DNA from: an uncultured virus (IMG/VR IMGVR_UViG_3300042356_001581)
Lineage: Duplodnaviria; Heunggongvirae; Uroviricota; Caudoviricetes
Length of the DNA stretch: 64,000 nt
Virus record (IMG/VR): IMGVR_UViG_3300042356_001581
Strand: one strand, 5' to 3'
Below are positions 12,374-47,014 of the stretch, piece after piece. The position numbers and the translations under genes were made by a program. The stretch's first letter is position 1; every line of letters begins with the position of its first letter. Below the pieces are notes generated by a model that saw only the letters and a program-made list of their open reading frames with translations, had not been told where the DNA came from and ran no database searches.

Positions 12374-15300
12374 TTAAGCTTCCTTTTGTTTTCTTAATTC
12401 AGCGAAAGCTCTTTTTCTAGCATCTAACCAACTCTCTCCATTCATTCTAATTTTTTTAGCTAAATCATTTGCTTGTTTCATAGTTTCAGCACCAGCGTTC
12501 ATTTTTTTAGTTCCAGTTTGACCACCTGCTTTAAAATTAGTCATATCAACTTCAGAAATATCAATGTTGCGTAGTTTTACTCCTGAACCAATTTTACCTA
12601 CATTCATTACACTTAAAGTATTTTCGTCTTGCGTAAAAATCATAACAAACTCACCTGATTTTAGAGGAACTTGTTTACCTTCAAGGTTCGGGTATTTTGG
12701 TTTGGCTTTAGCTAAATTTTTAACATTTTTAAATAAACCTCCAAATGCTTTTTTATCAGTTTGCATTGCTTTCACTTTACCTGCAACTTTGTCGCCAACC
12801 TCTTGTGCTTCTTCTCTTGAATAATATTTACCGTATTCTTCTTGATATTGGTTCTTTACAGGTTTCCCCTCGTACTGTTTTGCTACTTTATCAGAAAGTT
12901 TGTCAAAGTTGGATATTTTACCTCCACCTCTGAACATTCCTGTTTCCATAAACTTTTTGAACTTGGCTAAACCTTTGGCGTGTTGCTCTGCAACAACCTT
13001 ATCAGTCAAACGGCTTGGTTTTGAAACTTCTAAAGTGTGATATGGGTCTTCATACATCATATATTTGAACGTTGTATATCCATCTCCGTCTTCACTCTTT
13101 CCTCCTTTGGCAGAAGTTAATAATTGACCGTTTGAAGTTTTAAATGTAGAAATTCTCCAATCATAATTATTAAAATCGTCAATATTGGTAGTTGCACTCC
13201 ACCCGTAAGCACCTTTTTTAATATAGGTTTCTCCGACTTTTGTTGCTGATTTAGATGAAGAAGTAGGTGTTGGTTTATCTGAAAAAACGTAAATTCCATT
13301 ATTCAAATTAATCAAAACTTCTTTTTCCCCAATTACATCTTTCTTCACTCCGTCTTTATAAACGTCAAATCTAAAGTTTTTAGAATCGTATTTTAAAACC
13401 AAATCAATAGCAGGTGCGCCACTCATCGCAGGAGCATTAATACTTATTGAAGAACCGTCTTTTGGCAAATCTTTAGAAGTAAAGACTTGTTTAGATTCAA
13501 TTGGTTCAGCACCTTTCTTAACCCAATACCCATTTACGGGCTTAACAGTAGTTCCGTCTTTCAACTCAACAGAAACTACATCACGCTTTGGAATATAATT
13601 TGCCTTTGAAGTCAAATCTCCGCCTTTGGCAAGTACATTAGCCCCATTAAGAACGTCAGTACCTTTGTAGGTAACTTCTTTGCCATTACGTTTAACTGTA
13701 ACGGTTTTGATGTCTGCTTTTAAGATGTATTTTTTAAGATTTCCACCGTCAGCGTAAACATTGTCCATAAAGCCACCGTCAGCGTAAATTTTATGTAATT
13801 GGTCTTCTTCAAAAACATCGCCTAATCTTTTACTTGTTTCAGAAATTAAAAATCCATCTTTGTCATAACCTGCTTTATTGTCAACAACATAGTAGTTTGA
13901 ATCATATCCGTAGTTAGGCTCTTTTACCTCAACAATGTCGCCTAATTTAATATTACCGCCCTTAGCGTAAGAACTTTTTAAATTATTTCTATGCTCTAAA
14001 ATTGTGTTTATTTCTCTGATTTCTTTATCAATTCTGAATTTACCTAAATCAGTACGCTCATTATTTTTCATCATTTTTAAATATTGAAGTCTTTTTTCGT
14101 AAGTTTCATTAGTAACTTCGCCACCGTCAGAGTATTGCTTTTCAAATAATTCGCTAATTTCTTGTTTTGAGAAAAATGTAGTTTTGGTTGATGTTTTTCT
14201 TCCTTTTTTAGTGGTTTGCTTAACTTTCCAGCCTTTAGCAGTAGGTTCTAATAATTCAATAGTTATATCCTCGCCCCAACCTTTACTGTGCTTGTGTGAA
14301 TAGACTTCGCCACCGTCAGCAAAACTACCTTGTATTAAATTTATCCACAATGGAGTTACACCTCTTGTTTCAAAAATTATATCATCATTGTCGTTTGATA
14401 CAGGAAAGTATAAAAGTGCTTTTTCAATATTTATTTTGATAAAAGGCATCATACCTCCAATAGCAGTAGTGCGGTTAACATATCTAAAAACTTTTTCCCC
14501 TTGCTTTAGATTCAAGTTTTTAATCAAATTTTGGTCGTAATCATCTAGCTTGTATAAGAAGCCGTCAGCTATGTTTGACTTTTTATTACTTAGTATTTTC
14601 CAACCAAAACTACCAACAAAAGAATCTGATTCAATTCTGTCTTTTACTTTTGCGTATATTTCTTTTTCAAAACTTCCGCTTGGTCTGCTTAATCTATGTT
14701 GATTTTCATTGTTGAAATAAGTAACACCACCTTTAGCATAATTATTATTATTTTCATTTATAAAACTAATAGCTTCATCAATTTTCTGAACAGTGTGTCC
14801 ACCTTCAGCCCCTTCATCACTGTAACTTCTAATAAATCCATATTTACCAAAATCAAGATGTATAATAAATTTTCCGCCGTCAATAATTATTGAATTTTTA
14901 CCTTTTTCAAAGGTGTGGTTAGGCAATGCTTTCTTTAACTCAACAATACTTTCATCTTCAAATCCTTTTCCAAAATATTGATTAACATAATCAACACTTC
15001 CACCCCCATCATAAACACCCGAAGCCCCTGAATTATCAGATTTTACAATTGAACTTCCGACACTTGAACCCGAAGTTTTATTGATAAATGCTTTTAAATT
15101 TTCTAAGTCGCTTTCGCTTATTGTAAACGGAGTAAGTTTATCCATTTGCAAGTGAACAAAGTAAGCACCGCTTGAATGACTTTGGCTCATTACACCAACT
15201 CCTTTTACCAAGTTAATTTGACCTATTCTTGTTCCTGATTGAATTGTAATAACACTTCTTGCATCGTCAGCACCAATAGGGTAAACAATAAAGTCTTGAG

Positions 15301-18019
15301 CTTTTCTCATTCCTGATATTCTCATTTCAATATCAGTAGTTCCCATTATGTTTCTTTTCAATCCAAAAATTTCTGCTTTGGCAATTTCTCCGCCTTTGGC
15401 GAAATTTATAGAATAATGAGATTTTATTTTATCTCTTGCTTCCGTAAGATGTTTTACAACTACATTTTTTTTCAAATCAAACTCAATCTCTTGATTACCG
15501 TCTGTAATAATTGTGTTAAAAGGCTTACCACTTACTCCAATAGCATCAGTATTTTCATTTTTTAAAAATTCAAATTCTTTGTCGCTTAAAATTGACTTTA
15601 CATCAGAATTTTTAATCAACATTGATTTTAACATAAAAGTATCTATTGAACCAACGTTCGGGATAAATGAATCAACTTTTCCGCCTTTAGCATAATTAGT
15701 CATATAAGTAGAAACTTTCGGAATAGTTCCGTCAAAATACCCACCGTCAGACAATTTTTTTGTAGTTTTTAAAAAGTGTTGTTGGTTTCCATATCCACCT
15801 TTTGTTAAAGTATATTCGCCTTTTGTAAACTTTTCAATATTTGCTTTGGCTTTATCGAAAGGAGCGTGAGTAACTTTATATATTAAGTTTTTAATGTCTG
15901 TACTATCTCCATAACCTTTAAACTGATTAGTTAAAGACCCTAATGCCAAACCTATGCCATCAACAAAAACATATCCATCGCTATAATATAATATTTCAGG
16001 TTTATATTGCATTAACAATTTAGACGCTTTTTTGTAATCTACAACTCCATCATACACACGACCTCCGTCATCATAAACACCATTCATAAACCCACCGTCT
16101 TCAAACTTCGCTCTATCCCAACCAAAGAATTGAGAATTTGCAGTAAACTTTTGTTTTCCACCCTCACGACTATAAGCAACTTCCCCTACTTCTTCTCCGT
16201 CACCGTCAAAAAACGTAAATACGGCATTAGAAACACCGTTTTCGTCAGAGTTGATGATTGGCTCTATTTCAAATTGTTCGTCCTTGTAATCGAATGTGTA
16301 ATCATCACGCAATTCAATTCCTTCCATACCTTTTAAGAAACCTTTCAAGTTACCCATAGCATCGTCAGTAAACTTTTTAGTCATTTCTGCTTTTGTTTCC
16401 GCAGACACGTTTATTGGTTCTACAACTTCTTTGTTTCCGATTTCATCTTCGTCCTCGTTTTCTTCTTCATCCTCCTCTTCGTTTTCATCTTCAATTTCGT
16501 CCTCCATTAATTCCTTTTCTCCGTCAAGGTAATGAGTTACGTCAGATATACTTTGAGTAGCAGTTGCCATTTTAGCAACTACCCAAGCAGGAACAGGGAC
16601 TTTATCTTCTAAAATATCTTCCAATTCTTCGTGATGATGTTCTAATTCAACATTTTGATTCATAATCATTTGTTGATTGTCTGTGAAATCAGAAATGTTT
16701 CCGCCATCAGCATAGCCAAAAGAAAACAAATGTTTATTTTGTTGATACAATTCGTTTTTTTCATCGTAAGTAGGTAAATCTATTGCTTTTATGTCAGTTA
16801 TAATTTCCCTGCCGTCATTTAGCAGTACTCTTATTTGACCGCCTAATTTAACTGTTCCTTTTATGAATTTTCCATTTACAGGCTCGACAAATCTTTTAAA
16901 GTCATTTCCGTAAGCGTATTTTGATAAATCGTAATACCCATATCCTTTGGATAATGTAACTTCATCTCCTGAAATTTCTCCGCCGTCAGCAAAGTTATTT
17001 TTGTAACCTTGTTGCAAAAGTTTAAATTCTTCCTCCGCTTCATTAATGTTTTCTGAAGGATATATCATTCTACCGATTTGAACTCCGTAGCTTTCTGAAC
17101 TTCCACTTCTTTTAATTAATCTTAAAACTTTATTATTATCAGGTTTATTTTCAAAACCTTTCGTTTTAGATTCTTTTAATATTGTACCAAGAATTTTCCC
17201 TTTTATGTCTTTTACTTCTCCGCCAATAGCCATTTGTCCGCCGTCAGCATATTTAGTTTCGTAACCTTTTAAATTCCAAAGTCTTTCCAAATCCTCTTGT
17301 TTATTACGATTGTAATTATCAAGAACCGCAACTTGGTCTTTACCGCTAAAAGTATAACCTTTTTGCTCTCTTCCTTTGCTTAATAAAAGCATTTTAATCG
17401 GTTTTTTTGAACCTAACGAACGCTCATAAACAACTTCGATTTCTCCGCCGTCAGCAAAGTTTCTTTTACCAAATTGATTTTCCAAAGCATTTAATAATCC
17501 TTGAACGCTAAAGCCTCTATAAATTACATCTTCTTCATACATTAAATCAACGTTTCTTAACTCGTGGTCAACAGAGCCAACATAACCTCTTTTATAGTAC
17601 ATATCTAAACCATACTTGCTTCGCCCTTTTTTAAATCCAAACTCTTCAAATATGTTTTGCCAAGTATCTTTTCCTTGTACGTTTCCACCATCAGCATAGT
17701 ATTCCCCATTACGAAGCCCTTGATAAAGTTCTTCTGCGTTAATAGGGTCAAACCCTAAATCACGTTCAAATCCTAAACCAAATCGACCACGATAAGTTTC
17801 AAGGTCGCTACGGCTTACTGAACCTACTTCAGCACCATATCCCAAATCTACAATAGCCCAAAGGTAATCAGGGTCTTGTGGGTCAGAATTTAGTATGTAC
17901 CAGCTTCCTGCACCTTGAGGGTTAAATATCTTGACAACAACCTCTTGTTTAGAGAGGTCGCTACCAAGTGCATATTGTTTAAATAATTGTCTGTCAATTG
18001 TTTTATTAAATAATCTCAT
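12374..18019 (-). CDS. 1881-aa modular polyvalent protein/polyprotein; N-terminal DUF2958-like domain, ~20 [FYML]xxGG junctions
   Basis: N-terminal KIFNPQGAGSWYI...VDLGYGAEVGSVS..DL...GLGFERDL resembles DUF2958; repeated YADGG/FADGG/YAKGG. Confidence 0.8.
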   Translation of the reverse strand: MRLFNKTIDRQLFKQYALGSDLSKQEVVVKIFNPQGAGSWYILNSDPQDPDYLWAIVDLGYGAEVGSVSRSDLETYRGRFGLGFERDLGFDPINAEELYQGLRNGEYYADGGNVQGKDTWQNIFEEFGFKKGRSKYGLDMYYKRGYVGSVDHELRNVDLMYEEDVIYRGFSVQGLLNALENQFGKRNFADGGEIEVVYERSLGSKKPIKMLLLSKGREQKGYTFSGKDQVAVLDNYNRNKQEDLERLWNLKGYETKYADGGQMAIGGEVKDIKGKILGTILKESKTKGFENKPDNNKVLRLIKRSGSSESYGVQIGRMIYPSENINEAEEEFKLLQQGYKNNFADGGEISGDEVTLSKGYGYYDLSKYAYGNDFKRFVEPVNGKFIKGTVKLGGQIRVLLNDGREIITDIKAIDLPTYDEKNELYQQNKHLFSFGYADGGNISDFTDNQQMIMNQNVELEHHHEELEDILEDKVPVPAWVVAKMATATQSISDVTHYLDGEKELMEDEIEDENEEEDEEENEDEDEIGNKEVVEPINVSAETKAEMTKKFTDDAMGNLKGFLKGMEGIELRDDYTFDYKDEQFEIEPIINSDENGVSNAVFTFFDGDGEEVGEVAYSREGGKQKFTANSQFFGWDRAKFEDGGFMNGVYDDGGRVYDGVVDYKKASKLLMQYKPEILYYSDGYVFVDGIGLALGSLTNQFKGYGDSTDIKNLIYKVTHAPFDKAKANIEKFTKGEYTLTKGGYGNQQHFLKTTKKLSDGGYFDGTIPKVSTYMTNYAKGGKVDSFIPNVGSIDTFMLKSMLIKNSDVKSILSDKEFEFLKNENTDAIGVSGKPFNTIITDGNQEIEFDLKKNVVVKHLTEARDKIKSHYSINFAKGGEIAKAEIFGLKRNIMGTTDIEMRISGMRKAQDFIVYPIGADDARSVITIQSGTRIGQINLVKGVGVMSQSHSSGAYFVHLQMDKLTPFTISESDLENLKAFINKTSGSSVGSSIVKSDNSGASGVYDGGGSVDYVNQYFGKGFEDESIVELKKALPNHTFEKGKNSIIIDGGKFIIHLDFGKYGFIRSYSDEGAEGGHTVQKIDEAISFINENNNNYAKGGVTYFNNENQHRLSRPSGSFEKEIYAKVKDRIESDSFVGSFGWKILSNKKSNIADGFLYKLDDYDQNLIKNLNLKQGEKVFRYVNRTTAIGGMMPFIKINIEKALLYFPVSNDNDDIIFETRGVTPLWINLIQGSFADGGEVYSHKHSKGWGEDITIELLEPTAKGWKVKQTTKKGRKTSTKTTFFSKQEISELFEKQYSDGGEVTNETYEKRLQYLKMMKNNERTDLGKFRIDKEIREINTILEHRNNLKSSYAKGGNIKLGDIVEVKEPNYGYDSNYYVVDNKAGYDKDGFLISETSKRLGDVFEEDQLHKIYADGGFMDNVYADGGNLKKYILKADIKTVTVKRNGKEVTYKGTDVLNGANVLAKGGDLTSKANYIPKRDVVSVELKDGTTVKPVNGYWVKKGAEPIESKQVFTSKDLPKDGSSISINAPAMSGAPAIDLVLKYDSKNFRFDVYKDGVKKDVIGEKEVLINLNNGIYVFSDKPTPTSSSKSATKVGETYIKKGAYGWSATTNIDDFNNYDWRISTFKTSNGQLLTSAKGGKSEDGDGYTTFKYMMYEDPYHTLEVSKPSRLTDKVVAEQHAKGLAKFKKFMETGMFRGGGKISNFDKLSDKVAKQYEGKPVKNQYQEEYGKYYSREEAQEVGDKVAGKVKAMQTDKKAFGGLFKNVKNLAKAKPKYPNLEGKQVPLKSGEFVMIFTQDENTLSVMNVGKIGSGVKLRNIDISEVDMTNFKAGGQTGTKKMNAGAETMKQANDLAKKIRMNGESWLDARKRAFAELRKQKEA

Positions 18020-18030
18020 ATTGAATATAA

Positions 18031-21000
18031 TTAATCGTTTTTATGTGTGTTTGAAGTAGGCTTTGGCAAATCACTTATAATCATTCTTTGATTAACCGCC
18101 ATCATTTTGTTTGGATTTCTATTGATTGGATTAAAACCCATTTTTGCTCTTACTCTACCGTCCTCGTTTAAGTCTATGTCTTCATCAAGCGGTCTAATAA
18201 CTACTTCATTACTTCTACTGCTTACATTGTCCGTTAGGTCTATTGGCTCATCAATAACATCTACCTCAACCTCTGTTTCAGGGTATCTAAAACTTCTCTC
18301 GTTGTCTGCCCTCATAAACCCGTCATTGTCGTCAAACATTCCGCCGTCAGCAAAATAACTTTCTAATTCTTTTATTTTTTCAACAAAATTAGATTTATCT
18401 GTTCTAACCTCTTCTTTATTATTTAATGTTTTTGCATAAACAAAAAAGCCATTTTTACCATATACTTTTGGAGGAGTGGCAACTAATCTTAGTTTAGTTC
18501 CTTTGGGAATTAACTCATTTGAATATGAGGCATAAACATCTTTTTTTAAAGTTATAATACTTCCTTTTTCTATATCTCCGCCGTCAGCATAACCAAAAGA
18601 TTCTTTTTGTTCAATTTCTCTAAATAAAGTGTCTAATTTTTTATCTTCTTGTCTTGAAAACCATTGAGATTTTGCAGACAGATAACTTTTAGCAGGAGAA
18701 ACACCTCTTACACCTTTAATTTTTTCATAATCATTTTCGGTCATAAACATAATCGTAGTCCCTGCACTTGTGTTAGCACCTCCAAGTGAGTACAACGAGA
18801 TGTATTTTACATCACTTCTATTTATTTGTTTGGTTGCTCTATGGCTTCCTGAATTAACAAAAACATATCCCTTTGGAGCGACTAACTTATTTGCATCTTT
18901 TTTAACCACCGTTTTTGGAGCAAGGGTTGAATTTTCAAATCTCCCTTTTTCTTCCATAGCATTAACTAATTTTAATACTAATTCATCGCTACCTTTCATT
19001 AAATTAGTTCTACCAATAAAACCCTCTTTTTCTTCGGAAGTTCTGATAAAGTCAATATTTCCGTCAGGAGTTTGTAAATAAAAATCTCCGTAACCATAAT
19101 GTTTCAATTCTGTATTAGGTAAATTACCTTGAGATTGATTTACAAAATTACTATCTACAAAAACCTCAAATTTACCTCCACCACTAACGTCCATTTTAAA
19201 ATGCGCTTTGGTTTCGTCTATTTTAGGAGGAGTATTTGTAGTCTGTGAATAATACATTGGATTATTACCAAAATCTTCAACTTGTTTTAATGCTTCTTTA
19301 ACCGAAAAACCATATCCTGTCATTGGATTTCCGTCAACGTCAATAAAGTCGTATTGTCTTGAACCATTTAGACCTGTTACATAACTTTTTGCTAAAGCAA
19401 GGTTTATCGTTTTACCATTGATTACAACTTTATGATTAAAGTTTACGTTTGGATAGTTTGGGCTTGTAACTTTTCCCGTTTTAGGAGGAGTACTTGCGTT
19501 CTTTTTACCCATAGGCTCTGCCCCTTTCTTAATCCAATACCCGTTTACAGGATGTATTACATCTCCATTTTTAAGTTCAACTGAAATTACATCACGTTTA
19601 GCAATGTAGAAAGCAATTTTACTCAAATCCCCACCTTTTTCCATTAGGTTCGCTCCATTAAGAACGTCTTCGCCTTTAAAACTTACTTCTTTGCCTTTAT
19701 AGTTTACTGTAACGCTTTTAATATCATCGTGGTCGATGTATTTTTTTGGTTTTGAAGAAGTTTTTGTTGGTTTTGGTTTCAAGAATAAATCCTCAATCAT
19801 AGTCGCTACTTTTGAACCTGCCATTTTTGTTATAAAGAAGTAGGCGTTAATAATATCATCTCCATCATAATCACATTCTCTTGCGACTTCTCTTGCGAAA
19901 GAAGCCACTTCTTCATTTGGATTAAAAGATTCTGCTCGATATAAATCATCAGACCACTTTGTTTTACCTTCTGCCTTTACAACAACTTGTTTTGCTTCAT
20001 CGTGAAAGTTAGCATCAGTTAAAGATTCTACTAATGCTTGTGTCATTATTTTATTATATTCTGAAGTAGCCCAATCACTAATTTCAAAACCTCTTACATC
20101 GGCTAATTTTTGTATTTTCTTGTTTAACATACCGTTAATTTGACCACCACCTAAAAAGTAAGCATCGTTCATAAATTCAGTTCCGTTTGAAACGTTTGGA
20201 GCGAAAGAACCGCCGTTAGCCATTTTATCTAATTTTTTCCAAATACCTCTACTTATAAAGAAATTAATGTTGTTAGCAGAATAAATAGAATGTTCTCCAT
20301 CTTCCCAAGTTACATTATACACATTAGGAATATCGCTTTCTTTTCCAATTGTAAGTTGCATTTTTTCTTTTTTATCAAAATACTTTTCGCCTTGACCTAC
20401 TTTGAACTTTAATGCACCACCGTCAGCCATTTTTTCACTCAACAATTCATTCCATTGAGAGATAGTATATTGACCATATCTTTTTCTTGCTTCTGAATCA
20501 GAAATATTAAATTTCTGCATAGCCTTATAAATGTTTTCTCCATAAGTTTTAGATGGAGGTAAAACATCTCCGCCGTCAGCCATTTTATATGCTTTATCAG
20601 ATTTTGCAAAAGCAACAACTTCTTTTTGTTTAGGATTATTTTTATTACCCACTAAAGCAGTAACAAAATCGCTTGGGCTTATCATTTTTCTACCAAGACC
20701 TGACATTAAATTGGATAATTCTGAATCAGTTAAATTATTCTCATTTGCAAAAGCATCAACACTTGTTGCTCTTGTTCGTGTCAAAGAAGCAATTTGCTCA
20801 ATGTAGAGTTCTCTCATAGATGGTCTGCTTTTAGTCTTTCCACCGTAAGCATAAACTCCATTTATAAATTGAGTTCCGTCTGAAACGTCAGGAGTAAAAC
20901 CGCCGTCAGCCATTTTTTTAGTTCTCCAATCTTTTTCGCTTACTCTAATGTATTCTGTATCAAACGCTTCGTTAAGAGCATCTTGCGCTTTGTTTTTATC

Positions 21001-25407: not shown

Positions 25408-25461
25408 ATTTTTAATTTTTAATTTTTAGTATAGTTTTAATAAGTCGTCAAAATTTTTAGT

Positions 25462-26754: not shown

Positions 26755-26770
26755 TTCTTACCTTTTTAAA

Positions 26771-27046
26771 TTATATTTCTGTTGGTTTTAAATCGCCTAA
26801 AAAAGCACCATACTCTAATTGTGTCATTCCTTTTTCCAAATCTTGCCAACCCTTTTCAAGTTCGTAGGTTTCGAGTATTTCTATTTCGTTGTAAATTCCA
26901 CCTTGTCCAATTTTGTAAATAACGTGAACAAAAAATGTATTGGGAATTTCAGAATGTTTCAAAACCTCAACTTTACTCAAAGATACGTTTTTATGTTTAC
27001 CAAAATCTTGATAATAATTTTTCCGTTTTGTTACTTCTGCTATCAT
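26771..27046 (-). CDS. Hypothetical protein
   Basis: 91-aa ORF in operon. Confidence 0.55.
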   Translation of the reverse strand: MIAEVTKRKNYYQDFGKHKNVSLSKVEVLKHSEIPNTFFVHVIYKIGQGGIYNEIEILETYELEKGWQDLEKGMTQLEYGAFLGDLKPTEI

Positions 27047-27047
27047 C

Positions 27048-28637: not shown

Positions 28638-28640
28638 CTC

Positions 28641-30049: not shown

Positions 30050-30050
<1 letters not shown>
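28641..30050 (-). CDS. MoxR/CobS-like AAA+ ATPase
   Basis: VYLYGEAGTGKT, LLLLDE, IIATGN, DLSLQDRF. Confidence 0.85.
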
Positions 30051-31750
<1,700 letters not shown>

Positions 31751-31758
31751 TTTTTTTA

Positions 31759-34700: not shown

Positions 34701-36459
34701 CAGAAACAGAATCTCCTTCCAAATTAGCATCGTAAGGTGTTACTCCGCCTTTAGCGTAAGTTTTATTACATATCCAGTTATTTCTTTCGTCTTCGTAATA
34801 ACCGTCATCATCACCATCATCATCTAAATTATTTAAAGATAAATCAGATTTTTTACAATATTGCTTTGAAGCATATTGGTCTAACCAATAAACGTAATTA
34901 TCATCTACATCAAATATAGATTTTCCGTATTTTCCAAAATTGGTAATTAAATCCCCCTCTTTTGGTTCATTTCCTAATTTACCACCATTAGCGAAAATCA
35001 ATCCATTGTCAGCACCAACAATTGAGTCAGCTTGAACGTCCAACAAATCATTGTAGTTGTTTAAATCTCTTGCTGGAGTATCTCCTTTTTTAGAATTTTC
35101 AACTAAATCTTGTTTTTGGATATGTCCGCCCATTTTAAGCCCTGCTTTTGCAAGAATAGAATAGTAGTTAGGGTTTTCTACTAAATGGTCTTTTGCAACC
35201 CTTGTACGCTCTTTAAAATCGGCAAAGTGTTCTTTCTCTACTTCCAACCCTTTTGCAAGTTGTTCGTTGATGTGAGCCAAAGAAACGTTGTGCATTTCAG
35301 CTATTTGCTTTAAGGATTTGTTTTTTGATAAATGACCGCCTTCAGCATAAAGTTTTACTGAACTAAAAGACGGATTAAGATAATTATTGTTTTGGTCGTA
35401 AAAATCAATTTCTTTTATCTTGTAATCATCTTTTTGATTATCATCAAATGTTACTTCAAACAAGTAATCATCATAAACATTAGGTTTATTGCTATTTCCT
35501 ATGCGTTTAACACCTGTTATTTTTCCAAACTGCTTTCTTTCACTATTCGCTCCCTTTAATGTTTTTAAATATTTTTTATCAACATTTTTATCTCCATAAA
35601 TACCACCCTTATAGTGAATTTTTACTTTGCTTCCGACTAACTCGATTGGGTCTTTTTTTATTGTAATGTTACCACCCAACTCAAATTTATTGTTTTTTGT
35701 AAACTTGGCAATTTGTTTTGGGTCTTCAATGTAATAAGTTTTTATAGTTTTCTTGCCTTTTAAGTAGGCATTGTTCATTCTATGATTACCGTCAATCAGA
35801 ACTTCTTCGCCATTTTCCAAGCGAACCATTATTCCGTTTGGTTTTCGGAAATCAGTTTTAACTGTTTCGCTATATTCCTTGTCGTAAATAGGGTACTTCA
35901 TAGCAAAAGTTTCAACTTCTTTAGTTTTTAAACGAAGTTTGCCTTTTTTAATAGCATTGTAAATAGCATCTACATCATAAGTCTTACCACCAGAAGAAAA
36001 TTGTTGTTTACCTTTTTTCAAAGTAGAGTTCATACCTAATGAATGTGCTATATCTGAATCTTGAACCATTTTACCACCATATTCGTATTGCTTATCTGTC
36101 GTATGTATTTTAGCAGGTATGTCGCCACCATCGGCAAAAGACACTCCGCCACCGTCTGAATTTATTTTTGAAAGTATCTCACGGTTAGTCATCATTTTGC
36201 CCTCAAACTCACGTTTTGTTGTATCTGAAACTGCTGGAGCAGTAATAACAATTTCGCCTCCTTGCATTTCTAAAGGCTGACCCGTTGCTTTATTAACTGC
36301 TTTTATGCCACCGTCTTTATGTAGTTTACCAACCAAATAGCCCGACATAGTTCCCTCATCGTGTATAATTGTTTGTCCGTCTTTTTTTCCAATAAAAGCA
36401 CCACCCGCAGGTGTAAACTCTGCTTTTTCTTCGGTTATAAATTCTTCTTTATTTTTCAT
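31759..36459 (-). CDS. Polyvalent protein: ParB-like, DUF5661-like, four internal repeats, C-terminal ART-like domain
   Basis: VLIDGNHR (ParB/Srx); KGLEVEKEH...AKDHLVENPNYY (DUF5661-like); FKNWFGNW...PVVMFHG...YDGFI...NQVK (ART-PolyVal-like); start MKNKEE at 36459. Confidence 0.75.
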   Translation of the reverse strand: MKNKEEFITEEKAEFTPAGGAFIGKKDGQTIIHDEGTMSGYLVGKLHKDGGIKAVNKATGQPLEMQGGEIVITAPAVSDTTKREFEGKMMTNREILSKINSDGGGVSFADGGDIPAKIHTTDKQYEYGGKMVQDSDIAHSLGMNSTLKKGKQQFSSGGKTYDVDAIYNAIKKGKLRLKTKEVETFAMKYPIYDKEYSETVKTDFRKPNGIMVRLENGEEVLIDGNHRMNNAYLKGKKTIKTYYIEDPKQIAKFTKNNKFELGGNITIKKDPIELVGSKVKIHYKGGIYGDKNVDKKYLKTLKGANSERKQFGKITGVKRIGNSNKPNVYDDYLFEVTFDDNQKDDYKIKEIDFYDQNNNYLNPSFSSVKLYAEGGHLSKNKSLKQIAEMHNVSLAHINEQLAKGLEVEKEHFADFKERTRVAKDHLVENPNYYSILAKAGLKMGGHIQKQDLVENSKKGDTPARDLNNYNDLLDVQADSIVGADNGLIFANGGKLGNEPKEGDLITNFGKYGKSIFDVDDNYVYWLDQYASKQYCKKSDLSLNNLDDDGDDDGYYEDERNNWICNKTYAKGGVTPYDANLEGDSVSVLSTGGGVGLPKVAYVKISNTGASLVKLMGLKYNSYIEFAESVQEAYKPFVNIKPIRRSFVEIQAYDENDNKLVNANTYIADQKNTVKNFNPTTGNYKNLEKSLANSRPRIFQKFDWEDWFLSKVKPSTTNSQTPTSTSAQPFDLTNTKIVLDDPEMSEKVQKRAFELGWSWNGSKEVKKRGERFMFFNKEKNISFGVNFSGFQSNQFKEIFEHDLFGSQTPTYSYLPLDLSDTKVWIGDDERLSKAIQEVAFELGWSWSGGKTVQNTDAKYLVFNSMKFIGYRKDGREAFDANISKEINPQDILLAKKAVITTSSSTSSSNKPFDFTDTKINVKGDLDLSVKVQKKAFESGWEWENGIGKAIDYSTINYLYFTKKSMSDGFTASSFVNSPKREITEVEIFGSQTPNITSSTTSAQSSSKKDVQSVLVTYAGGQQYVALNEQRLLDKIVELWKTGGRSTMGIILQPQGFVTTLSSPLNILLDTIRASKNSVQPSTLSISELKGYLSIEWYPELNWSDFFKEAQTTTSSSAQPFDLSQTKIWIGNDEEVSKQIQERAFELGWSFKGLTMPKSTKFTNRPALYFNADKDIYYGDYDRQIFDSDNTYREITVDELFGTPNTTSKPVVPKTVDDKKFTDFKEAVSALEGFASQASKKYNTADYEDSLQLFKEVKEEYSLALSFTPESSFMYERIELMKKINEVQKEITRITELKNGGAYYILAKVIDRLEKSENWKESGIGEIMINEVPEQEIESVIYTDKFKNWFGNWEEALITKEYDYVSKALTANGKPVVMFHGAKRIKYSYRQVSNGVVYLAENRSYAEWFSATDSPYQKQGDYLTQCFVNIKNPIDLTVFGVEEVDLRDIIQFIDTVYPLAKIYDVLPPNTAMAIMNNQLIGRNFRAWYIIRQFPELNKHIRDNTDYDGFIYYENNPSDMIISEITGEMEENITKATAVFNSNQVKLVDAMLFDSSLDDWRFEQGGKVN

Positions 36460-36464
36460 TTTTT

Positions 36465-37019
36465 TTACAATAAATGTTTCCAAGCCTTTTCCAACAAAAT
36501 TAGGCTAATTAATGACATATCTACGTTATATATTTTCCCAACTTCTTTTAATGTTTTTGTTCTTCCAATTGCTCTTATTTCTAAAACTTCTTTTTCAGTA
36601 AGTTTTGAATTTGTGTGTGATGAACCTTTTATTGAAATTTTAAGATTATTATTTAAAGCGTGAATTACATTTTCAGAACCCGTAGCCCATTCTAAATTTT
36701 CAACGCAATTATCATCTTTTATTCCGTTCTTATGATTAACTTGAGGTTTATTTAAAGAGTTTTCTAAAAATTCATTAGCAACTAATCTATGAACTATCAC
36801 GCTTTTTTCACTACAAATATCATCTGATTTTTTACAGAGTTTCAAAGTTAAGTAACCTTTTATATTTTTAGTTGGTTTTAAAAATTTTTCTTTTTTATTT
36901 CCAAAAATACCCTTCCTAATTTCCACGACCCTTGCCAAAGATTTAACCCTACCTAAGTCAGAAACTTGATAATATCCTTCGTAACCTTTAATATCTTTCC
37001 AAACTTCAACTTTCTCCAT
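36465..37019 (-). CDS. NUMOD4-HNH homing endonuclease
   Basis: EVWKDIKGYEGYYQVSDLGRVKS (NUMOD4); VHRLVA..F...QVNHKNGIKDDN.VENLEW (HNH). Confidence 0.9.
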   Translation of the reverse strand: MEKVEVWKDIKGYEGYYQVSDLGRVKSLARVVEIRKGIFGNKKEKFLKPTKNIKGYLTLKLCKKSDDICSEKSVIVHRLVANEFLENSLNKPQVNHKNGIKDDNCVENLEWATGSENVIHALNNNLKISIKGSSHTNSKLTEKEVLEIRAIGRTKTLKEVGKIYNVDMSLISLILLEKAWKHLL

Positions 37020-37023
37020 ATTC

Positions 37024-40000
37024 TTATTTTCCTAAAAACATTTTTAAATAATCAGGTGATAAGCCTATACCCGAATTTAATCCTCCGCCTTTCAATAATC
37101 TATTAATTGGGTCAGAGGTGTAAAAACTTGTATTGTCAAAACCGCATTTATGACAAATATACATATCCCATAATTCGGAATCTTTTTTATTCCATTCCCA
37201 ACCACAGTTGATACATCTTATATCTTTTTTCATTTCTCCGCCATTTTTATAATTAGCAACTTTATATCCTAATTCATCAATCAAATCATCATCTTGGTTA
37301 TATTTTCCTGACTTACTTTTACCGTTTACAATTTTATATATAAAGGCATTTAAACGAGCCAATCCCCAAGCCACTCTACTATTTGGCTTACCACCAGAAA
37401 TAGTTGGTCTGTGAGAACTTGAATAAGCCCCCATACCTCTGCGAACAACTGCTTTAGCACTTGCCAAGTTTATTTTTTTATCAGGGTATTCTGCATTATG
37501 CTCCTTAACCTTTTTTTTTATAGACTCAATCGTTTTATCATCAAATTTAATCAATTTTGCGCTTGATAGATTTTTTGAAGAACTTTTTTTGTTTACATCG
37601 CTACCTTGAACTTGGTCTTTTTTTGGAGCAGGTGTTTGTGATATTGTTCTTCCGCCATTTTTAAATTGAATATCAGGATTTCTTTTAAGCCACAATTTTT
37701 GTGCTTCTATTGATATTTTGTCAGGAGATGGCTTTAGTTTTTTACCTATTACATATTCAATATATTCATAAAGATTTGATGCTAAACCTCTTCTTCTGTA
37801 ATCATAATCTAACCTAATGTTGGTTAAGTAGTTCCCTTTTTCATTTAAAGTGGCTCTACCTACTTCGATTCCGTTCGGCAATTCAATTGTAAATACATTT
37901 AGTTCAGGATAAATATTTAACCTTGAAAAATAAAAATTAGCCTCTCCTACATTTTTGTACGCTCGATTTTGATACACTTCTTTTAAATCATCATCTAATT
38001 CTTCAATAACGAAACCTTGTTCGTTTGTTATTCCACCCTTTTCGTATTTTGATTTTTCAGAAACTATTTTTTTTAGTTCTTTTTTGTATTTATCATTTAT
38101 TGCCGAATCCATAGCGTAATAAACATCTTCATTCCAATTTTTCAATGCTGTTGGATTCAGAAAATAGATTGCAAAGTTTTCAGCAAATGTTTCTCCACTA
38201 TGGGTTGTGCCATAATTTGTTGGAGAATAGGCAGGGTTTTTAATAATTCCTGTTAATACGTTTTGAAAGTCGTATATATGTCCAATCTCGTGTAAAAAAT
38301 AATACAAATCTGCTTCTTTCGTGTAAACAATTGTATCGCCAAACGCTCGTGCTATATCTCCACTACCCGTTCCTCTCTCTTTGTATTCAACTTTCTGTAC
38401 TGTAAAATCAAGTTTTTTAGAAGTTTCATTCCAATTTTCATCTGTCATTTCTTCGGAACGACCCCAATAAGAATCCATTGGAACGAAACCTCTTTTCTTG
38501 CTAATTATTTTTGCATATTGCAACCAATTCCCAAAGTCAAAAAAATCATCTTTACTTTTGATGTCATTTAGTGTTGCGTTATCAATATACTCTTGGTCTT
38601 TATAGATTAAATCAAAATCAATACCGAATTTATCCTTTAAAAGCACTTTGTATTTTTGATATTTTTCTAATTTTGGATTCATTGATATAATATCAATTAA
38701 CTGTTGCGCTTCTTCATTTATTTCTCCTCCGCCCTCAAATCTAATGTCATCATTACTTAAATCAAAAGTTGTATTCGTTCCGTCAGCAAGTTTAATTTGG
38801 TTTGAATTATTAACAACGTATAAATTATCTTTTCTTGTTCCAAATATTATTATACCATCAAGCATTTCATCAATAAATAATGCTCTAATGTAATCTCCTC
38901 TATTAATATCATAATTATCAGCAGGTGCATAATAATCACTATTTGTTTTTCTAATTAAAGGATTTTTTGTGTTTAAAAAACATTCGTAAACAAAACCTTT
39001 GCCTTTAAGTTCAGAATGTAATTTAGCATAGTTTTCAGCAGATTGTTTTCTTTGAGTAAAGAAAAAACCACCTTGCTCACTTTGAACATAATTTAAACCT
39101 ATTTTTTCTCTATCAAATTCATAAAAATTAAAAGAACTTCCGTGATAGACAACCAAAGGCTCTCCGTTATCATCAATAACTTTACTAGCATTATCAGGGT
39201 CATTTATCCAATCCCCAAACCAATTGATAAAGGCAGAACTTCTGACCAATTTGTATTGCTCGGCATTTAGGTTGCTTGGTTTTCCGTTAGGCGCAATTAG
39301 ACCACCGTTTTTAAACTCAATATCAAATATTGTATCATAAGGTAAAGAATATTTTGTCCAATTTTCCGAATCTTTTCTATCATCAAAAGGGTCGCCATAA
39401 AAATTATAATGTTTTCTTATATCTTTTTTTGCGGTATCAGTTGCCATTTTATTTTGATAATCTTCAGGACTAACTCTTTCCTTTTTCATCTTTCCCCCTT
39501 TCTCAAATCTAATATCAGGATTACTATCATCAAAAGTGGCATTAGTTCCGTCAGCAAGTTTGATTTGAGTGTTTTTTCTAACCATATAAATATTAGAAAC
39601 ATCAAGTATAAATTTACTACCTAATTTACCATTAAAATCAATTACATTTTTAAATATTATACCATCAAAAGACGGTAATACATTTTCGTCAAAAAATGAA
39701 TCAGGGCTATTTTTTTTATCAATAACTTTCCATATATATTGTCCATCCCCATTAATTATATATGGTTTCTGTATTTTTAAAAAAACCTCATAAATTATAT
39801 TGCCATAACTTTCTGATAATCTTTTATTTTCAGTAAAACTACTATAACTGCTATATATACCCTTACCAATATTAAATTTAAAAGTGTTGAAATCACTATT
39901 TGAAGAATGATAAACAACCAAAGGCTCTCCATTTTCATCAATAACCTTACTTGCATTATCAGGGTCTTTCTCCCAATCCCCAAACCATTTTTTAAACGCA

Positions 40001-40935
40001 GGTGTGCGAACCAATTTGTATTGCTCGGCATTTAGGTTGCTTGGTTTTCCGTTAGGTGCTAATAAAACTTCGCCACCTTGCTCAAATCTGATATTATTAT
40101 TTTCAATATCATACTCGCCATTATTAGCTATTGCTGATTTTATTTGATTAGAATTTTTTACCCAAATAGTTTCTCCAACTTCAGAAACGCCATACGCTTC
40201 ATTAATAGCAGAGCCTAAATCCACTATATTCTTAAAAATAGCACCGTCATTTTCTAAGTCCATTAAATCACTTATGTATTCGTTTAAGTGCTTTCCTCCT
40301 TTATAACTTGTAAACTCAACAGTAATAGGAATATTTTTCTTTGCTTTTTTTAATTCCAAAATTTTTATTTTAGCTTCTTTTTCTGTTTTAAACTTAAAAT
40401 GAGTTCCGCCATTTTTTGAGTCTCTAATATGCCATAAATTATCCCAATCTATGAATTGTAGTATTAAATCTTTTGGATTGGTTTCAAAGTCTTTTTTATA
40501 TGTGTATTTATCTGAACCAATTTCTCTAAAATGGTTGTTTTTAGCATCTACAATTAATGGATTTATTAATCTTAAAAAAACAGGTATTATATTTGCGTTT
40601 TTCTCATAAGCAGAACCGCTTTTTATTCTTTCGGGATTTGAAAATCCTACAATAGTATAACTTTCGGCTTGAATGACATTAGAAGTGAAAAAAAAGCCGT
40701 TTCCACTATGACCTTTCCTTTCCGCATCTTCACTAAAATCTTCAAAGTCAGCACTTGTTCCGTGATAGACTACAAGAGGTTCTTTAGTTTCTTCATCAAT
40801 AACTTTACTAGCATTAACAGGGTCGTTTTCCCAATCTCCAAACCATTTTTTAAACGCAGTTGTGCGAACCAATTTGTATTGGGTTGCATTTAGTTTGCTT
40901 GGTTTTCCGTTAGGTGCTAATAACTCGTTTTTCAT
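37024..40935 (-). CDS. Polyvalent protein: 3 ART-like domains, zincin peptidase, GNAT, DUF5824-like domain, Zn ribbon
   Basis: Three APNGKPS.LN..QYKLVR..F..WFGDW...PLVVYH units; HEIGH; YRRRGLASNLY; RRGMGAY..SHRP...WGLARLNAF; CxxC...CxxC; ends PDYLKMFLGK. Confidence 0.8.
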   Translation of the reverse strand: MKNELLAPNGKPSKLNATQYKLVRTTAFKKWFGDWENDPVNASKVIDEETKEPLVVYHGTSADFEDFSEDAERKGHSGNGFFFTSNVIQAESYTIVGFSNPERIKSGSAYEKNANIIPVFLRLINPLIVDAKNNHFREIGSDKYTYKKDFETNPKDLILQFIDWDNLWHIRDSKNGGTHFKFKTEKEAKIKILELKKAKKNIPITVEFTSYKGGKHLNEYISDLMDLENDGAIFKNIVDLGSAINEAYGVSEVGETIWVKNSNQIKSAIANNGEYDIENNNIRFEQGGEVLLAPNGKPSNLNAEQYKLVRTPAFKKWFGDWEKDPDNASKVIDENGEPLVVYHSSNSDFNTFKFNIGKGIYSSYSSFTENKRLSESYGNIIYEVFLKIQKPYIINGDGQYIWKVIDKKNSPDSFFDENVLPSFDGIIFKNVIDFNGKLGSKFILDVSNIYMVRKNTQIKLADGTNATFDDSNPDIRFEKGGKMKKERVSPEDYQNKMATDTAKKDIRKHYNFYGDPFDDRKDSENWTKYSLPYDTIFDIEFKNGGLIAPNGKPSNLNAEQYKLVRSSAFINWFGDWINDPDNASKVIDDNGEPLVVYHGSSFNFYEFDREKIGLNYVQSEQGGFFFTQRKQSAENYAKLHSELKGKGFVYECFLNTKNPLIRKTNSDYYAPADNYDINRGDYIRALFIDEMLDGIIIFGTRKDNLYVVNNSNQIKLADGTNTTFDLSNDDIRFEGGGEINEEAQQLIDIISMNPKLEKYQKYKVLLKDKFGIDFDLIYKDQEYIDNATLNDIKSKDDFFDFGNWLQYAKIISKKRGFVPMDSYWGRSEEMTDENWNETSKKLDFTVQKVEYKERGTGSGDIARAFGDTIVYTKEADLYYFLHEIGHIYDFQNVLTGIIKNPAYSPTNYGTTHSGETFAENFAIYFLNPTALKNWNEDVYYAMDSAINDKYKKELKKIVSEKSKYEKGGITNEQGFVIEELDDDLKEVYQNRAYKNVGEANFYFSRLNIYPELNVFTIELPNGIEVGRATLNEKGNYLTNIRLDYDYRRRGLASNLYEYIEYVIGKKLKPSPDKISIEAQKLWLKRNPDIQFKNGGRTISQTPAPKKDQVQGSDVNKKSSSKNLSSAKLIKFDDKTIESIKKKVKEHNAEYPDKKINLASAKAVVRRGMGAYSSSHRPTISGGKPNSRVAWGLARLNAFIYKIVNGKSKSGKYNQDDDLIDELGYKVANYKNGGEMKKDIRCINCGWEWNKKDSELWDMYICHKCGFDNTSFYTSDPINRLLKGGGLNSGIGLSPDYLKMFLGK

Positions 40936-40939
40936 ATTT

Positions 40940-41845
40940 CTATTTTCCTAAAAACATTTTTAAATAATCAGGCGTACCGCTTTCTGTGATACCGCCTTTT
41001 TTATAAATTCTATATTTTCCAATTTCTGAATCATAGTTTGCGTCATTACTTCTTTCTAATGATTTCCATAGATATTCAGCGTCTTCGCTTCTTGAAGAAT
41101 CTGAAATAATTGGTTTACCTAATATTTTTCTTAATTTCAAATATGCTTTTTTGCCAATTCCTTTTCCTTTTTCTATTACATTTGAATTACTAATCTGATA
41201 GCCATTCAAATCACTTCTATACATTAACTCAATTTTACCTATTTTTTCGCCTTTTTCATTTAATATTTCAAAAGGGAAAAAATCTTTATCATTCCTTATT
41301 TTTTTTAGTCTTTCATCAATCTGTAAATCAATTTCGCCACCTTGCTCAAATCTTATGTCATCACTACTTGAATCAAATTTAGTATTCGTTCCGTCAGCAA
41401 GTTTTATTTGATTAGGCTCAAAAGCAATTATTTCATATAAATTTTTATTACCTAAATGTTTAGCGTGTCCATAGTCCATTATTCCGTCATAGCCTTTTGT
41501 TATAAGGTATTTTAAATCTGACTCAAACATTTCGTAAGACGGGTTTACAATATTTAAAAAGTATGAATCTATTTTTGATTTACCGTAAACGCTTAATCTT
41601 GATTTATTTGGAGCAAAGAAAAAACCTTCTTTAGATTTCTTTTTGCTGAAAACGTAAAAATCTTTAGAGGTAGTGTGATACACGACCATCGGCTCTCCAT
41701 TATCGTCAACAACTTTACTCGCATTATCAGGGTCTTTTTCCCAATCCCCAAACCACTTTTTAAAGTCAGGAGTGCGAACTAATTTGTATTGCTCGGCATT
41801 TAGGTTACTTGGTTTTCCGTTAGGTGCTAATAACTCGTTTTTCAT
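40940..41845 (-). CDS. ART-like plus GNAT-like protein
   Basis: Paralogous N-terminus MKNELLAPNGKPS; VYHTT..GFFFA..YDGI..EIIAF..NQIK; KGKGIGKKAY; ends PDYLKMFLGK. Confidence 0.75.
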   Translation of the reverse strand: MKNELLAPNGKPSNLNAEQYKLVRTPDFKKWFGDWEKDPDNASKVVDDNGEPMVVYHTTSKDFYVFSKKKSKEGFFFAPNKSRLSVYGKSKIDSYFLNIVNPSYEMFESDLKYLITKGYDGIMDYGHAKHLGNKNLYEIIAFEPNQIKLADGTNTKFDSSSDDIRFEQGGEIDLQIDERLKKIRNDKDFFPFEILNEKGEKIGKIELMYRSDLNGYQISNSNVIEKGKGIGKKAYLKLRKILGKPIISDSSRSEDAEYLWKSLERSNDANYDSEIGKYRIYKKGGITESGTPDYLKMFLGK

Positions 41846-41849
41846 ATTC

Positions 41850-43082
41850 TTATTTTCCTAAAAACATTCTTAAATAGTCAGGCGTACCGCTTTCGGTAAC
41901 TCCGCCGTTTTCGTAAGTTATCTTGCAATTTGTTTGGTCAAAAAGAACCATATTTAAAAAGTCTTTATCCGCAGGAGAAAGTCTGCTTGGGTTCAATGCT
42001 CTGACCAATGTAGTTCGATAACTATCGCCTTTTACTTCTTCTAAAGCATTATCATATAGCCATTGATTCCATTTCTTATCGCTATTGATTGCGGTTCTAT
42101 TATTAGAGTAATTACCTTTTGGTAGCGGAGTTAAGCTTTTTCCTGAAATGCTTTTTGGGTTTTTAGCATTAAGAGTGAATATACCTCCACCACTTTCCAT
42201 TTTACTTGTTTTTTCCAATTCAGCAATAGGAACTCCAAATTTCGAGTAAGCACGGCGTTTAGGCAGTTTCATTCCTCCACGTTCAATTACATTATAATCA
42301 CCGCCTGAACCATCAACAACCATATAACCGTCAGCCTTGCTTTTAAGTTCGTTAAGTGCGCTTTTGCCCCTTGTAAAGAAATCATCTATCACAGCCATAG
42401 GGACAAATCGCCCACTCTTTTTGTACCTTTCTAAAGCACGTTTCTTCACAACCTCTTCTTCAACTTTATCTATGTAAACAATAAAGATTTTGTAACCTAA
42501 TTTTTTCAATAAGGCAATTAACGGTAAGTAACTCTTGGTGCTATTCATAGTTCCGTCATAAATAATATCATATTTACAAGGAATACCAATAGTTCTATCA
42601 CTCAAAAGGGTATTTACAATGTCTTTTGTTTCTTGATGGGTTGATGTAGCGTTCCAGCCTTTATATTCAGGAAGTTTTGCTCTAATTTCGTCAGCATCAA
42701 CTTTTAAAATTTCTTCTTTTAACAAGTATGGAGCATATTTTCTTAAAAACGTGCTTTTACCACTTGCAGGAGAACCCCCCATTAGAATTGCAATCGGCTC
42801 GTTATTCTGAATACAAATTAAATCCTTTTTGAAGGAATCCATTATTCTTTGGTGTAGTTTTTGTCTTTCGGGGTAGTAATTCCCTGTTGACTTACTCGTA
42901 TTTAAGTCTTTAGTTTGAGGTAAATTCTCGGCATAGTTTGTTAAAACTTCAATTGCTTCTATGTCAATTCTTCTTTCTCCGTCAGCATCGTAAATATCTT
43001 TTCGTATTCTTAAAGGAATTGAGCTGTCGATTTTTCCTCCGTCTTTGTAGTAATCAGAATAGTCTATGTTACTGTTTTTCAT
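41850..43082 (-). CDS. Zeta-toxin-family P-loop kinase protein
   Basis: AILMGGSPASGKST, VDADEIR, YDGT, RALERYKKSGRFVP; ends PDYLRMFLGK. Confidence 0.8.
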   Translation of the reverse strand: MKNSNIDYSDYYKDGGKIDSSIPLRIRKDIYDADGERRIDIEAIEVLTNYAENLPQTKDLNTSKSTGNYYPERQKLHQRIMDSFKKDLICIQNNEPIAILMGGSPASGKSTFLRKYAPYLLKEEILKVDADEIRAKLPEYKGWNATSTHQETKDIVNTLLSDRTIGIPCKYDIIYDGTMNSTKSYLPLIALLKKLGYKIFIVYIDKVEEEVVKKRALERYKKSGRFVPMAVIDDFFTRGKSALNELKSKADGYMVVDGSGGDYNVIERGGMKLPKRRAYSKFGVPIAELEKTSKMESGGGIFTLNAKNPKSISGKSLTPLPKGNYSNNRTAINSDKKWNQWLYDNALEEVKGDSYRTTLVRALNPSRLSPADKDFLNMVLFDQTNCKITYENGGVTESGTPDYLRMFLGK

Positions 43083-46301: not shown

Positions 46302-46307
46302 TTTTTA

Positions 46308-46676: not shown

Positions 46677-46709
46677 AATTTTTGTTTTAGTGATTAATAA
46701 ATGTTGTTG

Positions 46710-46970: not shown

Positions 46971-46971
46971 T

Positions 46972-47011
46972 TTTTGTTGTTATTAAAAAGTTTCTTGATT
47001 ACAAATATAAA
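46972..47011 (-). promoter_or_regulatory. Promoter/leader repeat, copy 1 (TATATTTG at 47002-47009)
   Basis: Nearly identical to 62761-62796. Confidence 0.65.
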
Positions 47012-47014
47012 TAT

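Follow-up and report, generated by a model that had tools for sequence, protein, structure and literature searches.

Polyvalent proteins are large multidomain proteins of phages and conjugative elements in which ART-PolyVal, Zeta-type kinase and zincin domains are combined with many small domains, with 2 to 15 domains per polypeptide according to the abstract of the study by Iyer, Burroughs, Anand, de Souza and Aravind (2017; PMC5512222). The sections of that study drawn on here propose delivery of these proteins with the DNA and early action against host defences, and raise the possibility that the proteins process themselves by means of embedded zincins. The 64,000-nucleotide stretch of DNA analysed here (hereafter the window; IMG/VR record IMGVR_UViG_3300042356_001581, from an uncultured virus) contains six giant open reading frames (ORFs) between positions 12,374 and 43,082, whose products are strings of about 60 to 80 small modules separated by a recurring Gly-Gly element, called the joint in what follows. 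The six giants are polyvalent proteins, a known class, in an extreme cassette form that is new. The joint itself is real, conserved and widespread, and a description of it was not found in the searchable literature; literal searches with the motif strings returned no phage context.

Two patterns were used to count the joint: a strict motif, [FYM][AESKD]xGG, and a loose motif, [FYML]xxGG. Strict copies number 18 in giant protein A (1881 aa; 12374..18019), 23 in protein B (2458 aa; 18031..25407), 8 in protein C (1574 aa; 31759..36483), 7 in protein D (1303 aa; 37024..40935), 2 in protein E (301 aa; 40940..41845) and 3 in protein F (410 aa; 41850..43082). All six genes lie on the minus strand, which holds nearly all genes of the window (∼31% G+C). 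Among the window ORFs of at least 100 aa, 61 strict copies thus fall in the giants (7927 aa) and none in the 50 other ORFs (10809 aa); the loose motif occurs 74 times in the giants and 10 times in the other 50. An earlier reading made from the letters of this DNA without database searches (the sequence-only reading) had pointed out the abundance of the motif in these six ORFs and called for a count against the rest of the proteome, and that count bears it out. Shuffling the residues of each giant 2000 times gave on average 0.09–0.89 strict copies, with maxima of 2–6. The ORF sizes given by the earlier reading agree with those above in all cases but one: its 1566-aa protein is protein C, which measures 1574 aa from a TTG codon, the shorter length presumably reflecting a later start. 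In a logo of 99 GG sites, the conserved positions relative to the first glycine are Y/F/M at −3, A/E/K at −2, D/K/N at −1 and I/V/T/M/L at +3. Since these positions flank GG on both sides, the joint comprises 7 residues rather than 5 and reads in full [YFM]-[AE]-[DKN]-G-G-x-[IVLM]. The loose pattern, which is the form originally proposed, is indeed enriched, but it also admits false positives within folds; the ILMGG in the Zeta-domain P-loop of protein F, for example, is not a joint.

Protein A has 137 giant relatives, and all 120 of those examined carry the strict motif, at 4.9–16 copies per 1000 aa. The joints in these 120 proteins, which contain 2542 GG sites, show a bimodal spacing of 10–30 and 50–100 residues. 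Lysine directly precedes GG at 27% of the sites, and spontaneous Asn/Asp-Gly chemistry was set aside for this reason. Core modules of protein A, namely the DUF2958 head, a 203-aa module, the module at residues 878–1007 and the C-terminal block, recur in 60–95 of the 120 relatives; its interior modules are found in 3–36 of them, almost always at full length. A query with a single module returned five close loci only. Neither protein B nor the AAA ATPase encoded among the giants had a close match among 50,697 phage records. The 203-aa module (residues 441–643; 16091–16699, minus strand) carries a net charge of −42 and is present in 89 of the 120 relatives; mimicry of DNA or the balancing of charge could be its role. 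A paralogous region common to proteins A and B spans a motif copy (∼12923–13741 and ∼19336–19743, minus strand; KG.DVLNGAN[VL][LM][AE]KGGDL...), and there the joint sits within a conserved stretch and not between unrelated modules.

The polyvalent character of the giants is evident from their domain content. Splitting the six at the loose motif gives 82 segments, among which an all-against-all BLAST comparison found 18 related pairs, 10 of them within the five ART modules. Many unrelated domains are therefore joined in single polypeptides in a phage context, and the earlier statement that the segments are mostly unrelated holds. Signature domains of the class are present: ART-PolyVal in five modules (E 7.6e-54 for the whole of protein D) and Zeta_toxin (E 1e-24). 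An HExxH module in protein D did not match the Pfam MPTase-PolyVal model. The giants differ from the described members of the class in that each divides into about 20–27 segments, beyond the range given in the abstract quoted above, and a term search of PMC5512222 met no description of the joint, of cassette turnover at the joint or of the codon dialect described below.

Where recognised families are present, the joint marks their borders. In protein A, DUF2958 (residues 25–92) lies ahead of YADGG at 108–112; DUF5661 fills a 70-aa module, phrog_32873 (positions 4–83 of 83) fills an 89-aa module, and the five ART-PolyVal modules each end ∼10 residues ahead of [FY]ExGG. All of these agree with the earlier placement of the motif at domain boundaries. 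Each recognised family is contained within one inter-motif segment, the Zeta-type kinase being the exception under the loose pattern. Two further domains named by the sequence-only reading fared less well. The GNAT domain is matched in Pfam only at E ∼0.02. The zincin corresponds to the HExxH module of protein D (38032..38724, minus strand; HEIGH at residue 882), which does have a joint on either side but has no Pfam match. When 62 modules were scanned against PHROGs, 14 had a match at E≤0.001 and the sole functional label was that of the Zeta-kinase module. The segments therefore remain unmatched to named small phage proteins, and the proposed comparison with stand-alone small phage proteins yielded this one label only.

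The ends of homology fall at the same place. The analysis drew on three related IMG/VR contigs that are 100% complete by CheckV, and the giants were compared with those of the related contigs G001 (102 kb) and G002 (73 kb). Among 56 ends of high-scoring segment pairs against the giants of G001 and G002, 11 coincided exactly with a joint (0.6 expected for random placement), 22 were no more than 3 aa away from one (4.1 expected) and 39 no more than 10 aa away (11.7 expected). The module matches in these two genomes cover entire modules (e.g., query residues 1–112, 1–203, 1–130, 1–139 and 1–63), and the presence and order of modules vary by unit. An exhaustive search with residues 471–1670 of protein B against 1.84 billion representative proteins gave 1869 matches at E≤0.001. 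In the best 150 of these, a joint lies no more than 8 aa from the start of the alignment in 94 cases and from its end in 106 (expected 37.5; maximum 54 in 1000 trials), and 146 contain the strict motif. In an AlphaFold model of residues 821–1029 of protein B, two modules were predicted with pLDDT >90 and 65–85, and pLDDT fell below 50 only at model positions 1–16, 88–91 and 183–209; the joints lie at 11–15, 84–88, 182–186 and 205–209. Four independent lines, that is, families, homology breakpoints, the exhaustive search and the AlphaFold model, agree on the joint as a module border. The joint is therefore very probably a seam between modules at which recombination takes place. ART modules open with LLAPNGKPSNL, after a start codon or after FEQGG alike, and ORF borders and joints are therefore interchangeable.

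The joint also has a codon dialect. Within it alanine is encoded by GCT in 30 of 33 cases, aspartate by GAC in 16 of 20 and the first glycine by GGC in 28 of 61, compared with 45%, 34% and 15% in the same giants overall. The deviation from the giants' own usage is significant (p ∼1e-8 to 4e-5), and the same bias is seen in G001 and G002. All 17 copies of the word GCTGACGG in the window lie within the giants, on the coding strand, and of 41 GGCGG occurrences 40 are read in frame 0. Taken with the breakpoint data, the codon bias suggests that linker DNA is reused as a seam for cassette exchange. The same observations could mean that the primary signal is nucleic, the preferred word GCT-GAC-GGC-GG(A) serving as a recombination or template-switch signal or as an mRNA or translation signal with the peptide largely a by-product. 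The confinement of the word to the coding strand of the giants, the fixed frame of GGCGG and the recurrence of the bias in both relatives favor such a signal, but the peptide is kept where the DNA is not. Position 1 is encoded by TTT, TAT, TAC or ATG and position 3 by GAC, AAA, AAC or AAT, so that the residue class is maintained while the bases vary; the hydrophobic position at +3 has no fixed codon; and in other lineages the codons differ (e.g., TACGCTAAAGGTGG) and the peptide persists. Because residue classes are kept where bases differ, the codon layer alone does not explain the conservation of the peptide, and a primarily nucleic signal is very improbable.

A joint that is never cut would be compatible with much of the above. 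The chains would stay whole, and the joint would be a flexible linker with a hydrophobic anchor on either side that lets modules fold, unfold and thread independently while the cargo is packed and delivered, and that accepts the insertion of any cassette, its conservation reflecting reuse of the linker by recombination. The position of joints in low-confidence stretches between confidently predicted domains, the breakpoints on joints with reordered modules and a linker codon preference common to the relatives all fit, and no dedicated protease tracks the motif. Copies near protein termini would be relics of cassette moves. In the part of a review of crAss-like phages consulted (PMC10136315), cargo proteins are considered probably stretched or partly unfolded, and cutting is not mentioned there. 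However, seven positions held across 2542 GG sites in 120 proteins would be rare for a pure linker, and the same element is present at a mapped cut in phage T5, described below. Polyvalent giants of cultured phages do without the joint, and a generic need for a hinge therefore does not explain it. An uncut hinge or evolutionary seam is a possible function, second to processing.

Outside this lineage the joint is met mainly in proteins that leave the phage particle. A DNA-level scan of all viral contigs for the tandem joint found 63 loci, when less than one is expected by chance on a rough estimate of our own. Compared with PHROGs, 21 carrier ORFs outside the lineage comprised 8 tape-measure proteins, 1 DNA ejection protein, 2 internal virion proteins with a lysin domain, 1 member of a function-unassigned family and 9 ORFs without a match; 11 of the 12 with a match are thus tape-measure, ejection or internal virion proteins. 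The joint is therefore widespread in proteins leaving phage particles and has been multiplied in the present lineage, the outside records having only 2–7 pattern matches each. The sequence-only reading had offered, as its alternative, a repeated signal like the FAxGG of tape-measure and ejected proteins, and these carriers agree with it. The giants and their modules had no tape-measure match in PHROGs or Pfam.

Two tail proteins allow a closer comparison. According to the portion of PMC10038345 used here, T5 pb2 is cut after R1127; the cut-site sequence is FVPR|AEGGMM, which contains the sole AxGG among the five GG sites of pb2. In the text available from PMC12617516, lambda gpH is cut to gpH* and gpHC, the exact site and enzyme being stated to be unknown, and two copies, FATGGF (FATGG at 733–737) and YATGGYV (YATGG at 778–782), lie in the glycine-rich C-terminal part of gpH that is processed. 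As far as these sources go, the A-x-G-G-x-hydrophobic element of the giants recurs where T5 pb2 is cut and in the processed region of lambda gpH, dividing a particle-leaving protein into its functional parts; the T5 enzyme is not named in them. There are also differences. T5 and lambda have one or two copies per protein, whereas proteins A and B have 18–23; T5 pb2 has arginine before the alanine, where the giants have an aromatic residue; and the T5 cut, the sole mapped cut at such a motif in the sources consulted, falls before alanine and not after GG.

Restriction of the motif to particle-leaving proteins might equally be expected of a multivalent docking or loading tag. Its partner would be a component of the particle or of the loading machinery, for instance the AAA_5/MoxR-like ATPase or the products of the genes next to it, a portal-like vertex or the inner face of the capsid, with many copies providing avidity and organising the cargo. 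Tandem copies are common, with a spacing peak at 10–30 aa; four conserved motif-free genes, among them that for the AAA+ ATPase, stand inside the giant block; and a shared C-terminal tag demonstrates that peptide tags are in use here. On the other hand, no partner was identified, docking alone gives no reason for a tag at each module border and recombination breakpoint, and the conserved end modules and tags already provide a loading signal. Docking is an unlikely role for the joint, less so than a primarily nucleic one.

From the polyvalent class and the motif shared with tape-measure and ejection proteins, we infer that the giants travel inside the particle and enter the cell together with the DNA. 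Proteolytic processing is the most likely single function of the joints, with a probability of roughly 0.45, mainly by the T5 precedent and by propeptide-like features. Conserved end modules and tags would direct the giants into the particle. The joints would then be cut, each chain giving rise to many small proteins, probably effectors of anti-defence or host takeover. By analogy with T5 pb2 (R1127|AEGG), the cut may fall at or beside the joint, before alanine rather than after GG. The enzyme might be an M48-like zincin of the lineage, the HExxH module of protein D or a host enzyme. The propeptide-like features are a 16-residue N-terminal peptide on protein F with YKDGG at its end, tandem joints 10–30 aa apart and the C-terminal tag. 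The tag, ...GTPDYL[KR]MFLGK, is ∼15–19 residues long and directly follows the last motif copy (37027–37083 in protein D, 40943–40990 in E and 41853..41900 in F, minus strand); it is common to nine proteins, the consecutive D, E and F and six counterparts in G001 and G002.

A more sweeping form of the proposal makes the giants true polyproteins from which cuts at roughly 60 to 80 joints release swappable anti-defence effectors, delivered with the genome; it also makes the joint a general cut code of particle-leaving phage proteins, T5 pb2 and lambda gpH included, and the virus possibly large, tailless and membrane containing. This version is doubtful, rather more so than the uncut hinge.

The sequence-only reading saw no candidate protease, and two can now be named: the HExxH module in protein D and an M48-like zincin encoded in all three complete relatives. 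The latter is a 261-aa protein encoded ∼6 kb past the left edge of the window (L023:8177–8962; G001 65177–65959), with 1174 homologues of near-fixed length and no Pfam family. HEFxH (H188, E189 and H192) and the acidic residues E202, E204 and D206 are invariant in 43 sequences. The predicted model (pLDDT 90.6) has an N-terminal CBM/jelly-roll-like sandwich, which alone was matched by Foldseek. The likeness to M48 came from a wider structure aligner, in which the C-terminal domain aligned with BepA (Z 8.8, rmsd 3.8, 120 aligned residues), 3c37 (Z 6.8) and Ste24p (Z 6.4). As these Z values are modest, the predicted C-terminal domain resembles M48 peptidases at the fold level only. A complex of the zincin, Zn and a 51-residue tandem-joint segment of G001 was predicted with scores of 0.24 and 0.28, both below a mark of 0.32, in runs without controls, and speaks neither for nor against an interaction. 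Inside the lineage, the zincin co-occurs with the motif in 39 of 50 records and in 13 of 13 that are at least 90% complete (50 of 61 loci). Sequence searches of the PDB with the HExxH module, the 261-aa zincin and its 244- and 403-aa neighbours gave nothing usable. A weak protease candidate only is a 175-aa papain-fold (NlpC/P60-LRAT-like) protein at 938..1465 (minus strand). NlpC/P60-LRAT-PPPDE-like proteins (this one and G001 L025:728–1207) were considered as GG proteases and rejected. Their matches are weak (E 2e-4 to 5e-4, at or under the cut-offs) and the better PHROG match is a tail lysozyme, so that these are probably wall hydrolases.

A number of observations weigh against processing at the joints. 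The HExxH module is missing from the giants of G001 and G002, and MPTase-PolyVal was found in none of the three relatives. Within the lineage, shared descent alone may explain why the zincin accompanies the motif; outside it, none of 27 motif-bearing records has the zincin (0 of 10 at least 90% complete), with all six lineage controls positive. The zincin is therefore a lineage gene and no general partner of the joint. Searches of the three complete relatives for C48 (control working), C39, the peptidase type of double-glycine leader processing (control positive in 7 of 14 genomes; host enzymes lay outside the search), and S78 (a search that could miss very divergent proteases) were all negative, so that the C48, C39 or prohead-type protease that the sequence-only reading had thought worth seeking elsewhere in the genome was not encountered there. 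Pfam scans of 56 window ORFs and 59 further ORFs of G001 revealed no known maturation protease family. Three cultured phages encode ART-PolyVal giants with the motif at chance level (F116 gp60, 2 in 1649 aa; BF1-TP2 gp68, 2 in 3633 aa; Y7 DarB-like protein, 0 in 3926 aa), and the small stand-alone homologues P0197 and P0219 hold two module copies without the motif. Homologs that keep the domains and lack the motif had been named in advance as evidence against a polyprotein, and in these three cultured-phage giants that is partly what is seen. The N4 virion RNA polymerase is packaged unprocessed, according to the relevant section of PMC5512222. Some copies are placed where a cut would be idle, as in protein C, which ends in FEQGGKVN, a motif copy 3 residues from the C terminus. 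The lineage is known from sequences alone. Finally, the codon dialect points to a component at the level of DNA or recombination that needs no cleavage.

Adenovirus and African swine fever virus (ASFV) process structural polyproteins at GG|X inside the maturing particle by adenain and pS273R, respectively, and adenain recognises (M/I/L)xGG|x. The sequence-only reading took these as its model. The likeness lies in Gly-Gly sites within polyproteins; the differences are the register, the host range, these being eukaryotic viruses, and the lack of a detected clan-CE protease. An adenain/Ulp1-like cysteine protease cutting after GG might be suggested by the invariance of GG in the motif and by partial checks indicating that the lineage may be a tailless membrane-containing virus, adenovirus and ASFV being related to viruses of that broad type. 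However, two residues separate the hydrophobic position from GG in the joint, compared with one in the viral sites, and in the part of the T5 report used here the cut falls before alanine. Besides the negative C48 search, C5 was found in none of the three relatives, though in an uninformative search whose control was silent everywhere, and the Pfam scans of window and G001 ORFs held no such family. An enzyme of this type is highly improbable. What survives of the polyprotein reading is the multi-module ORFs delimited by the motif, with modules that behave independently; the analogy to adenain and ASFV does not fit in register.

The sequence-only reading also knew of no such system in a bacterial virus. 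That statement overlooks the polyvalent class (PMC5512222) and the phiKZ-like phages, SPN3US among them, whose ejection proteins are extensively processed by a protease according to the portion of PMC5694885 consulted. T4 and phiKZ-like phages have head-packed, ejected proteins with targeting propeptides that are cut at short consensus sites, sometimes at several. By the same partial sources they differ from the giants in using AxE or SxE motifs and a known prohead serine protease, and in having no arrays of dozens of modules. A prohead system, with an S77/S78/S80 protease and an xxE consensus, was not recognised here: the S78 search of the three relatives was negative, no such family appeared in Pfam, and the motif is different.

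The type of virion bears on these comparisons. Pfam scans of the window and the further G001 ORFs revealed no HK97-type capsid, portal or terminase family, and PHROGs gave one weak match to a large terminase (E 2.9e-5). Between 57 and 77 kb of G001, 23 of 39 ORFs have a transmembrane-like stretch. A 271-aa ORF of the window (1771–2586, minus strand) is a small ATPase candidate whose Atlas neighbours have Zot, DUF87 or AAA domains (13–21% of cluster members); a PDB sequence search with it gave nothing usable. The lineage may be a large, tailless, membrane-containing virus. If so, the comparison with adenovirus and ASFV becomes apter in spirit, though the register and the missing clan-CE protease still oppose a literal match. 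If the joints are cut, one gene product would bring dozens of ready-made small proteins at infection, hundreds of unknown small phage proteins, a good many of which are likely counter-defence factors, could be delimited simply by looking for joints, and a determinant of the T5 pb2 and lambda gpH cuts would be suggested. Even if they are not cut, joints are natural splice points for cassette swaps, useful for parsing giant viral proteins and for engineering phage cargo.

Each giant has conserved end modules around an interior of small autonomous modules, mostly 40–200 aa long, with exposed joints between them. Protein A consists of the DUF2958 head, the 203-aa acidic module, a variable interior and a conserved C-terminal block; protein B has conserved N- and C-terminal modules around ∼25 interior cassettes. 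Protein C contains the DUF5661 module and four phrog_17589 repeats, and its C-terminal ART-PolyVal-like module scores 30.4 bits, slightly below the 31.2-bit cut-off. Protein D has three ART-PolyVal modules, the HExxH module (a candidate metallopeptidase), a weak GNAT-like module, a Zn-ribbon-like module and the C-terminal tag. Protein E has one ART-PolyVal module, one orphan module and the tag, and protein F the Zeta-toxin-like kinase domain, an orphan module and the tag.

Between proteins B and C lie four conserved genes without the strict motif (25462..31750, minus strand), which encode proteins of 430 aa, 529 aa (DUF7192-like), 469 aa (AAA_5/MoxR-like ATPase) and 566 aa. This motif-free set is found within the giant block in every relative seen; PDB sequence searches with the 430-, 529- and 566-aa proteins gave nothing usable. 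The 566-aa protein (30050–31750), which adjoins the ATPase, carries a (GQ/GE)n repeat of ∼160 residues and then 37 consecutive glutamines, and is kept in the relatives at varying length (586 aa in G001, 448 aa in G002). A gene for an HNH/NUMOD4 homing endonuclease (36465–37019, minus strand) is located between proteins C and D, with a 19-base overlap with the start of the protein C ORF; G002 has a 183-aa ORF at the same place and G001 has none there. Directly upstream of the giants is a 150-aa protein (43486–43938, minus strand) in which Pfam recognises an Acb2/Tad1 hairpin domain (E 1.5e-9); members of this family act as anti-defence nucleotide sponges. A 122-aa protein with a RyR domain (46308–46676, minus strand; Pfam E 6e-12) matches several function-unassigned PHROGs. 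A large block of sugar-modification genes (45024–53498, minus strand) encodes several glycosyltransferases, a methyltransferase, an aminotransferase-like protein, an RgpF-like protein and a hexapeptide transferase, to which the G001 counterpart (L024:14361–17071) adds sulfotransferase, APS kinase and ATP-sulfurylase-like genes.

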